Source of the DNA: a virus | DNA length: 44,997 bases | Reading direction: 5' to 3' (one strand) | Virus record (IMG/VR): IMGVR_UViG_3300045988_058486 | Coordinates: 1 to 44,997 of that record | Shown: positions 7,864-8,611 of the stretch, piece after piece | Numbering within the stretch: position 1 is the stretch's first letter | Layout: each line of letters starts with the position of its first letter | Made by a program: the position numbers and the translations under genes | The notes under the pieces: model-generated | What the model saw: the letters and a program-made list of their open reading frames with translations, nothing else | The model's database searches: none | Told to the model about the DNA's origin: nothing

Positions 7864-8172
7864 TCACTTGTTAAGCTTCTGCCAATACATGGCACCACGC
7901 CACACACCGACGATGAGACAGGCCAGAGCAATAGGACCGGAGACCTCCGGGGAAACCATGCCCCGTGCCGTGTAAACGGCCATCATCCCGGCCAGACACA
8001 GGCAGCTTCCGCATTCCAGGGCGGCCCGGCGGACAGTCCGCCAGAAAGCCCGCTTTGCCTTCTCATGGGCCACACGGGCCTGACACTTCCGCAGGGCCTC
8101 GGCCTTCTCGGCCTTGCGCCGGGCATTGATCTCATAGATCATTTCCATGTCCGGATCAGTGATGTACTGCAT
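7864..8172 (-). CDS. Hypothetical membrane protein (102 aa)
   Basis: Two hydrophobic stretches (CLCLAGMMAVY, IALACLIVGVW). Confidence 0.5.
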   Translation of the reverse strand: MQYITDPDMEMIYEINARRKAEKAEALRKCQARVAHEKAKRAFWRTVRRAALECGSCLCLAGMMAVYTARGMVSPEVSGPIALACLIVGVWRGAMYWQKLNK

Positions 8173-8611
8173 TCCGCTGCTCCTCCTCCATGATGTGCTT
8201 GACTTCCTCGGCCAGGGTCCAGACCAAGTGGCCTACCGTGGGCATTCCACGCTTGGGGTCCACCGTATTGCCAAAGTAGCGCTCCTGCTCCTCCACATTG
8301 CCCCTGGACCAGGCCACCTCGATAGCATGGCGCATGGACCGGTCGATGCAGCAGGATTTCCCGCTTTTGGCTGCTACTTCAGCATAGAGTGTGCGTACCG
8401 GGATGTTTGGGGCATCCATCACGATTTTGATGGCCTCCACCATGTTCCGGTAGCCGTCCAGATGGGCCGGAACGCCCAGCCGGAACAGAATCTCCTTGAT
8501 GATTTCGTCAGCTTCTCTGGGTTCGGGGAGCGTGTAAGGGTCGTTCGTCCCGGCGGTCAGCGTGGCCATTTTCTTTTCCAGGGCCAGAACACGTCTTTCA
8601 AGATTTGTCAT
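8156..8611 (-). CDS. Stand-alone Spo0A C-terminal (effector/DNA-binding) domain protein, no receiver domain
   Basis: GVPAHLDGY and RHAIEVAWSRGN reproduce the signature segments of the Bacillus Spo0A C-terminal domain. Start at MTNLERR follows AAGGAAGG. Confidence 0.85.
   Translation of the reverse strand: MTNLERRVLALEKKMATLTAGTNDPYTLPEPREADEIIKEILFRLGVPAHLDGYRNMVEAIKIVMDAPNIPVRTLYAEVAAKSGKSCCIDRSMRHAIEVAWSRGNVEEQERYFGNTVDPKRGMPTVGHLVWTLAEEVKHIMEEEQRNAVHH

Follow-up and report, generated by a model that had tools for sequence, protein, structure and literature searches.

We analyzed the complete viral contig IMGVR_UViG_3300045988_058486 from IMG/VR (44,997 nt; hereafter, the window), and here we focus on the gene at 8156–8611 on its minus strand. 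A first-pass annotation, made from the sequence alone, had described this gene as encoding the effector domain of Spo0A without the receiver domain, in the early operon of a phage. Spo0A is the regulator that decides whether Firmicutes sporulate, and biofilm formation, toxin genes, solvent production, and the initiation of replication are under its control as well. The gene and the parts of its product are:

8156..8611 (stop codon included), minus strand: receiver-less Spo0A_C gene, from the 151-amino-acid translation, Pfam PF08769, the shared gene call, and the ratio of non-synonymous to synonymous substitution rates (dN/dS)
8621..8627, minus strand: ribosome-binding site AGGAAGG (core GGAAGG), 9 nt 5' of the ATG, read directly from the sequence
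8552..8605, minus strand: codons 3–20, N-terminal leucine-zipper-like helix, predicted by AlphaFold2 with a per-residue confidence (pLDDT) of 67–80
8513..8551, minus strand: codons 21–33, flexible linker, with no predicted secondary structure (pLDDT of about 55 across the block)
8204..8500, minus strand: codons 38–136, Spo0A_C effector domain with six helices, from Pfam, AlphaFold2, and Foldseek
8303..8347, minus strand: codons 89–103, recognition helix IDRSMRHAIEVAWSR, from alignment to 1lq1 and 1fc3; corresponds to V212–R226 of Bacillus subtilis Spo0A

The 151-amino-acid product of this gene runs from MTNLERRV to RNAVHH, and independent gene calls on 21 public contigs gave the identical start. 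A longer reading of 193 amino acids, starting at 8737, can be ruled out because a diverged relative conserves the 45-amino-acid open reading frame (ORF) that lies just upstream in a different frame. The identical protein sequence occurs in 74 indexed blocks of public assemblies, so the prophage is common. Among seven distinct alleles, several pairs have 4–11 synonymous differences and no non-synonymous differences, and dN/dS is 0–0.26 (0.11–0.26 for the most distant pairs). The gene is working and is under purifying selection.

We also considered that the gene might be a dead fragment of a host's spo0A, or an artefact of assembly or annotation. Some of the "receiver-less" matches in the databases are indeed truncated ORFs on short contigs with a receiver end (P0005, P0053, and P0308). 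However, the protein from the window recurs in those 74 blocks with its own start codon and ribosome-binding site; it is under strong purifying selection; it is at most about 46% identical to any receiver-bearing Spo0A; and it has a distinct, conserved N-terminal helix where the receiver would be. The selection and recurrence data exclude a non-functional fragment or an artefact, and we give this explanation next to no weight.

A profile search places the protein squarely in the Spo0A_C family. Pfam's model (PF08769) aligns to amino acids 38–136 over positions 1–103 of its 104, with E = 8.5e-24 and 84 bits (the cut-off is 25). Both of the segments that the first-pass annotation took to be diagnostic of the C-terminal part of Spo0A are present: GVPAHLDGY at amino acids 46–54 and RHAIEVAWSRGN at amino acids 94–105. 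TIGR02875, which is the equivalog model for Spo0A, aligns only over model positions 136–255, with 81.8 bits (the cut-off is 200). Because that match is confined to the C-terminal part and is below the cut-off, this is not Spo0A proper. Pfam's Response_reg does not match anywhere in the 151 amino acids. Two PHROG families (37855 and 24603) do match, and both are labelled as "unknown function."

The structural comparisons agree with the profiles. The AlphaFold2 model of the 151-amino-acid protein, which was built on 79 homologues, has a mean pLDDT of 84.7 and places the helices of the effector domain at 34–45, 52–66, 72–83, 89–103, 106–113, and 126–149. Among solved structures, the only sequence matches are the Spo0A effector domains 1fc3 and 1lq1 (E of about 1e-17). 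When we compared the model to the PDB with Foldseek, only chains from those two entries were significant (template-modeling scores of 0.79–0.87 and root-mean-square deviations of 1.8–2.8 Å, with 1.8 Å for the DNA-bound Spo0A effector domain); the next-best match had E = 0.6. So the predicted structure superposes on both entries, and the protein, as modelled, has the full six-helix effector fold of Spo0A and no receiver domain, as had been claimed.

In the receiver's place there are 37 amino acids that, according to both AlphaFold2 and direct reading of the sequence, comprise a helix (3–20) and then a linker that is modelled with low confidence. This fits the earlier description of about 40 coiled-coil-like residues. 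In the helix, L4, V8, L11, M15, and L18 occupy heptad positions d, a, d, a, and d, with glutamate at e and arginine or lysine at g. The a/d residues are invariant across all of the alleles, and the only N-terminal changes among alleles (T17M and T22M) lie outside those positions. Heptad-like N-termini are also found in P0384 (MTAEERIKTLEQEVQRLW...) and P0388 (MENKELEAAVADLRKELDELRELIRKL...), which are distant relatives of the same length, so the combination of a zipper-like N-terminus with Spo0A_C is common to all three proteins (P0384 is from a syntenic locus, discussed below). Other receiver-less proteins (P0400, P0501, and P0117) have a similar opening motif, T-x-LE[KR][KR][IV]..L. The protein may dimerize via this helix; we do not put this more strongly because the helix spans only about 2.5 heptads.

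To compare residues, we aligned the protein to 95 full-length, receiver-bearing Spo0A proteins (we use the numbering of B. subtilis Spo0A). The residues that are kept include GVPAH, G172, Y173, R214, R217, H218, and AIEVAW, as well as R226, G227, F236, G237, T239, V240, P247, T248, and A257. In the study that produced 1LQ1, E213, R214, and R217 reportedly make base contacts. According to B. subtilis genetics, R226, G227, F236, G237, T239, and V240 are part of the helix that activates sigma-A. Judging from the alignment, the protein preserves the core of the recognition helix, but it has lost the whole KPTNSEF segment and many of the residues at the N-termini of the two helix-turn-helix (HTH) helices.

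The protein is a member of the Spo0A_C family, as the first-pass annotation had it, and it is not close to any receiver-bearing Spo0A that we found. Among 5.8 billion proteins, the best identity to any receiver-bearing Spo0A was about 43–46%. Because the identity is no higher than this, the gene is not a recent copy from a host. A recent capture of a host's spo0A can also be rejected because the protein sits on a long branch with receiver-less proteins. This is from a neighbor-joining tree, which is a crude distance tree and prone to long-branch artefacts: the receiver-bearing proteins cluster tightly, and the clade from the window shares a long branch with P0384 and P0388. A profile built from the clade retrieves only near-identical alleles and a sister group of 119–120 amino acids (139–172 bits, versus 115 or less for the rest). 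The sister group comprises P0257–P0262 and a protein from an IMG/VR contig (L084/L099), and it shares the motifs GVPAHLDGYR, ER.MRHAIE, and FGNSIDP.RGKPT.

We also ran an exhaustive phmmer search of 1.84 billion cluster representatives (clustered at 50% identity), which gave 4,197 matches with E ≤ 1e-3. Among the best 150 of these 4,197, 65 are short and receiver-less; the others are 47 receiver-bearing proteins and 39 longer ones that lack a receiver. Some of the longer ones consist of 2–4 tandem Spo0A_C domains and no receiver, and these rank among the best phmmer matches: P0370 (394 amino acids), P0371 (454), P0372 (428), and P0373 (231). We know of no earlier description of this tandem architecture.

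The features around the gene that bear on its expression and on the phage's lifestyle are:

9388..9416, minus strand: putative early lytic promoter, TTGACT-17-TAGAAT with a TG extension, from a promoter scan (10/12 matches)
9447..9474, plus strand: putative divergent promoter of the repressor, TTGACT-16-TATAAT, from a promoter scan (11/12 matches)
9499..9876, plus strand: CI/XRE-type repressor of 125 amino acids, from Pfam HTH_3 (E = 6e-14) and PHROG families of transcriptional repressors
8634..9351, minus strand: four small early ORFs of 67, 45, 56, and 45 amino acids, upstream of spo0A_C, from gene calls
7864..8172, minus strand: downstream protein of 102 amino acids whose C-terminal half is hydrophobic, from the list of ORFs; its start overlaps the stop of the Spo0A_C gene by 17 nt
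5153..7363, minus strand: YqaJ exonuclease and RecT recombinase, downstream in the same early operon, from Pfam (E = 2e-33 and 9e-57)
10957..12630, plus strand: large serine recombinase (the integrase), with attP in its 3' end, from Resolvase, Recombinase, and Zn_ribbon_recom domains

The Spo0A_C gene comes fifth in the early lytic operon, some 780 nt downstream of the promoter, and we found no minus-strand terminator between the two. The early promoter diverges from the promoter of the CI-like repressor; both are predicted to be strong and of the sigma-70 type, and they stand back to back between the repressor gene and the operon. These sequence patterns uphold the earlier placement of the gene in an early operon. 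Because of this arrangement, the protein is probably made upon induction or infection, and not in the lysogen.

The window is a complete, circular, 45-kb temperate siphophage. It is the entire contig (NODE_525 of ENA ERZ827455), and its termini overlap by 55 bp, which implies a phage genome that is circular or circularly permuted. The overlap sits in repetitive DNA, so circularity should be treated with some care. (Both ends, 1–80 and 44918–44997, are inside a gene for a pentapeptide-repeat protein, with GGCCC[CT]GGACAGG[CT]T repeats.) Within the window, we called a small terminase (GP3_package), a holin, an endolysin, the large serine integrase, and the CI-like repressor; the SPP1-type portal, the large terminase, and the SU10 capsid protein were assigned from L103, which is a related contig with the same capsid protein. 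On the minus strand, the lytic genes run in this order: small ORFs, Spo0A_C, the 102-amino-acid protein, DUF6906, a zinc-ribbon protein, YqaJ, RecT, SSB, RusA, DUF6291, methylase-type genes, the small terminase, the structural and tail region, the holin, and the endolysin. A gene for a 196-amino-acid HTH protein with a hydrophobic C-terminal segment (HTH-196) precedes and overlaps the integrase gene.

The host belongs to Faecousia, a genus of gut Oscillospiraceae, as indicated by the sequence of a 75-kb contig (L088) in which the same phage is integrated. There, the integrase end of the prophage adjoins the host's fhs, a gene with an FTCD_C domain, folD, and a DUF1576 gene, and the host's formyltetrahydrofolate synthetase (FTHFS) is about 100% identical to proteins from metagenome-assembled genomes (MAGs) of Candidatus Faecousia (these are NCBI's names; the family is Oscillospiraceae). 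The attachment site is inside the 3' end of the integrase gene: in the free phage, the integrase has 557 amino acids and ends with ...MASGSPNATHPNPTITFIGFLLVQTQRYSLP, and in the integrated form (5933–7531 of L088), it has 532 amino acids and ends with ...MAYGSP, directly beside the host's fhs. We did not find a close prophage in GTDB's species genomes; the matches from that scan are at most 39% identical and are apparently host spo0A genes. Half of the phage genome had no megablast match among GenBank phages. The description of the genus Faecousia contains no sporulation data. NCBI does name Spo0A proteins from MAGs of Oscillospiraceae, such as P0320 and P0346.

We tentatively propose that the gene encodes a phosphorylation-independent transcription factor with Spo0A-type DNA binding, which this temperate siphophage of Faecousia would use most likely at 0A-type sites of the host. 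We put this proposal close to, and somewhat short of, an even chance. When the early lytic promoter fires upon induction or infection, the Spo0A_C protein would be made. Because the inhibitory receiver is missing, the domain would not be held inactive and we infer that its activity would be constitutive. The zipper-like helix at the N-terminus would replace the dimerization that phosphorylated receivers provide in cellular Spo0A. The dimer could then bind 0A-box-like DNA via the recognition helix, with its retained R214, R217, and H218, and the retained G227, F236, G237, T239, and V240 of the sigma-A-activating helix could contact RNA polymerase. The weakest step is the target: we suggest 0A-type sites on the host chromosome, at the promoters for entry into sporulation and possibly at oriC. 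The host's Spo0A program would then be uncoupled from its kinases while the phage replicates. The isolated DNA-binding domain of Spo0A (Spo0A-DBD), from which the receiver has been removed, does bind its legitimate targets without phosphorylation (PMC3485338), as the first-pass annotation had stated. Also, Spo0A boxes at oriC that overlap DnaA boxes are a documented class of targets (PMC5295017).

Several observations weigh against our proposal. The first is the shortness of the zipper-like helix, noted above. The second is that about 28 positions that are each at least 90% conserved in cellular Spo0A are changed in the protein from the window. Among these are T158K, H162F, K171D, Y175N, R177V, T194V, K195 (variable), P199A, T207K, T208S, S210C, R211C, V212I, E213D, A215S, I216M, K246M, N249V, S250G, E251H, F252L, A254W, and D258E. 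L174 is also replaced, by arginine, and the invariant segment KPTNSEFIA reads MPTVGHLVW. The changes affect residues at the N-termini of both HTH helices (T194V, T207/T208, S210C, and R211C). Aspartate at position 213 is found in none of the 95 or the 47 receiver-bearing Spo0A proteins, and in 3 of the 65 short receiver-less cluster representatives. So the loss of DNA-contacting residues, which would speak against a Spo0A-like role, has occurred in part: E213 is changed, along with the other positions, and R214 and R217 are retained. Because these conserved residues have changed, the protein's DNA specificity or its partners may differ from those of cellular Spo0A.

The replaced surfaces raise the possibility that the protein is a competitive blocker or decoy. 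It would occupy 0A boxes, or sequester a partner of Spo0A, without activating anything, and sporulation would be shut down so that lysis can finish. Candidate partners are region 4 of sigma-A, sigma-H, or a regulator that binds Spo0A. There is a parallel in phage homologues of sigma factors that lowered spore yield, in work cited in PMC10294663. Several of the changes (H162F, L174R, K171D, and KPTNSEFIA to MPTVGHLVW) affect surfaces outside the recognition helix, and the sister clade of 119–120 amino acids has lost W224, R226, and G227, which are at the start of the sigma-A-activating region. However, the protein from the window keeps the activating-helix residues G227, F236, G237, T239, and V240. 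Also, a blocker overlaps with our proposal of a factor that acts on the host's 0A sites, and differs just in the sign of the effect. We consider a pure blocker to be rather improbable.

As for 0A boxes in the phage itself, its genome is not enriched in them:

10362..10368, plus strand: candidate 0A box, shown in context as TTTGTCGAA; the only non-coding exact box, 14 nt before the start of HTH-196

TGTCGAA occurs 5 times in the phage genome, and 5.1 occurrences are expected; for TGTCRAA, the corresponding numbers are 13 and 11.4. Of the five exact boxes, four are within late genes. The fifth, at 10362, had been spotted in the first-pass annotation and is indeed present. It is conserved in all of the relatives, yet the surrounding region is conserved as a whole. 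So box enrichment can be rejected, and the suggestion of a phage that makes use of 0A boxes of its own is not supported; one plausible site is left. Separately, at host spo0A loci from several MAGs of gut Clostridia (L013, L014, L018, L021, L025, L054, L056, and L071), there are TTTGTCGAA boxes about 450–500 nt upstream of the start of the match to the C-terminal domain of Spo0A. These boxes near the start or promoter of spo0A are consistent with conserved autoregulation by Spo0A and with a valid 0A box in such hosts.

In another explanation, the protein is a phage-specific early regulator (Cro-like, antirepressor-like, or a switch from early to middle genes) that has the Spo0A_C fold and acts on the phage's own promoters, with a specificity that has drifted from the host's 0A box. 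A potential target is the leader of the operon with HTH-196 and the integrase: besides the exact box 14 nt before the start of HTH-196, this leader contains two boxes with one mismatch. The protein is also the first recognizable DNA-binding protein of the early operon, as the four small ORFs upstream have no Pfam or PHROG match and no recognizable DNA-binding domain. E213D, the loss of many residues that are invariant in Spo0A, and the recognition helix of the relatives, which varies at 213 (E/D/S), 217 (R/K), and 218 (H/Y), would also fit a regulator with its own specificity. On the other hand, the switch region (9352–9498) contains no 0A box with up to one mismatch. The counts are at chance in the leader as well as genome-wide (in 9877–10382, there are 3 boxes with up to one mismatch versus 1.5 expected), and we did not find any other repeated operator motif in 9340–10400, just short chance-level repeats and one terminator hairpin. 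Furthermore, R214 is kept in 65/65 of the short receiver-less cluster representatives and R217 in 63/65, which argues for a shared, host-like core site.

A comparison with a syntenic relative is the third point against our proposal, and it bears on the phage-specific regulator as well. In L105, the same slot is occupied by the gene for P0384 (1991–2452), within the order small ORFs, Spo0A_C, the 102-amino-acid protein, DUF6906, YqaJ, RecT, SSB, RusA, and DUF6291. The neighboring genes are 65–87% identical to those of the window (72% for the 102-amino-acid protein, which has no match to a Pfam or PHROG family), and the two Spo0A_C proteins are just 40% identical. So phages that are otherwise similar have deeply diverged alleles in this slot. 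Such hypervariability is not expected of a protein that is locked onto a universally conserved site in the host. It is the pattern seen for specificity determinants in the regulatory modules of phages. However, the 8.4 kb of L105 that we examined contain no TGTCGAA, which is unhelpful for a regulator that would use this box on its own phage. L105 also has an additional ORF, for a Cys-rich protein of 68 amino acids, between the Spo0A_C gene and the gene for the 102-amino-acid protein.

The genes around the sister clade are suggestive of a phage-specific regulator, too. In an element of about 100 kb, the sister-clade gene directly follows antirepressor-type genes (P22_AR_N and Phage_pRha). The sister-clade elements are L100 (6030–8363; k119_74382 of ENA ERZ27289111, 108 kb) and L084/L099 (UViG 3300013383_000028, 83 kb), and the large element also carries a tyrosine integrase. 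Because the box counts are at chance, the identity to any receiver-bearing Spo0A that we found is at most about 46%, E213 and about 28 positions overall have changed, and the syntenic allele is 40% identical, the phage-specific regulator is a serious rival to a hijacking of the host's regulon, even if we think that it is, by itself, unlikely. Overall, the first-pass interpretation is partly supported, by the effector domain without a receiver, the early operon, the retention of R214, R217, H218, and AIEVAW, and the phosphorylation-independent binding of the isolated domain. It is weakened by the lack of box enrichment, the roughly 28 changed positions, and the distance from receiver-bearing Spo0A.

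A broader speculation, which we find doubtful, is that stand-alone Spo0A_C with an oligomerization helix forms a large and diversified class of regulators from phages and mobile elements in Clostridia, whose members are not host mimics. The alleles in the slot would then set phage-specific specificity, like immunity types do; the gene in the window would be a lytic-switch factor; and cellular Spo0A would be one branch that became fused to a receiver.

How does the protein compare to known systems? The effector domains of Spo0A from Bacillus (1FC3 and 1LQ1) and Clostridioides difficile have the same six-helix fold and are about 33–35% identical to it. In contrast to cellular Spo0A, the protein from the window has no receiver and no phospho-acceptor aspartate, has D213 instead of E213, has an added heptad helix, and is encoded by a phage. 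Sad67, which is an allele of Spo0A with the receiver deleted, is constitutive. The constitutive forms of Spo0A from the laboratory have the native contact residues and no added dimerization helix, whereas the protein from the window is diverged and has a zipper-like N-terminus. Another precedent for our proposal is YqaH, from the yqaF–yqaN operon of the skin prophage of B. subtilis, which is under the control of an Xre-like repressor. YqaH is likewise a small protein from a prophage operon, and it interferes with the Spo0A/DnaA axis. That operon also contains yqaJ and yqaK, which are YqaJ/RecT-type genes. However, YqaH is unrelated, and it binds the proteins DnaA and Spo0A, while the protein from the window is itself a Spo0A-type DNA-binding domain.

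The idea of a receiver-less Spo0A in phages has been published before: Schwartz et al. (mBio 2023, PMC10294663) described truncated homologues of spo0A in phages from the human gut (29 virome sequences), and they inferred a signal-independent control of the initiation of sporulation for these virome homologues. Also, BFVD includes seven viral UniProt entries of 98–195 amino acids (such as A0A8S5TNE3) that are named "Sporulation initiation factor Spo0A C terminal," with structural matches at E = 5e-6 and below. Both sets are, like the protein from the window, effector-only and encoded by gut phages. The identity of that protein to the entries in BFVD does not exceed 31%, and it belongs to a long-branch subgroup with the signatures LDGY, IDR.MRH, and FGNTVDP.RG. 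So the gene in the window is probably a further, and a divergent, case of a known kind. In the literature that we searched, we found no experimental test of this class. To the published idea we add the host genus, the integration site, the placement in the early operon, the heptad N-terminus, and the departures in conserved residues (including E213D), as well as the chance-level 0A boxes, the hypervariable syntenic slot, and a view of how large and how varied in architecture the stand-alone Spo0A_C family is.

If the protein acts on the host's 0A boxes, then spore formation in the gut's abundant Oscillospiraceae could be rewired by induction of the prophage, and this could affect their persistence and their transmission from person to person. 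The copy in the window is practical to study, as the prophage occurs widely, its genome is complete, and the type species of the host genus, Faecousia intestinalis, is in culture (PMC12056005). Given the divergence of the protein and the hypervariability of its alleles, it should also not be taken for granted that every viral "spo0A" manipulates sporulation.

The three tblastn matches to phage sequences from GenBank that we examined (H1, H3, and H10) are not comparable, as they are complete Spo0A proteins, receiver included. Such full-length proteins are encoded by MT835737, MT835718, and MT835504 (L093–L095), which were deposited as "Bacteriophage sp." from human faeces. Either these records include bacterial DNA, or some phage-like elements carry a complete spo0A.

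Near-identical phages differ at the repressor locus. In L087 (scaffold_396 of ENA ERZ28574096), no gene for the 125-amino-acid CI-like protein was called between HTH-196 and the early operon. In L086, an insertion sequence with an rve transposase lies between the 196-amino-acid HTH gene and the early operon, in place of the repressor. Elsewhere in the window, there is an apparent inserted block at 36289–41372, between the small terminase (41508–42077, minus strand) and the large terminase (34548–36227, minus strand). This block encodes a second, small serine recombinase (38000–38776, minus strand), a protein similar to HTH_23/Sigma70_r4_2 (36841–37203, minus strand), a DUF4160/DUF2442 pair (36545–36829 and 36289–36570, minus strand), and several plus-strand ORFs. 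Finally, two phage tRNA genes, Asn-GTT and Thr-TGT, are at 31946–32179 on the minus strand, beside the putative portal ORF (32372–33814).

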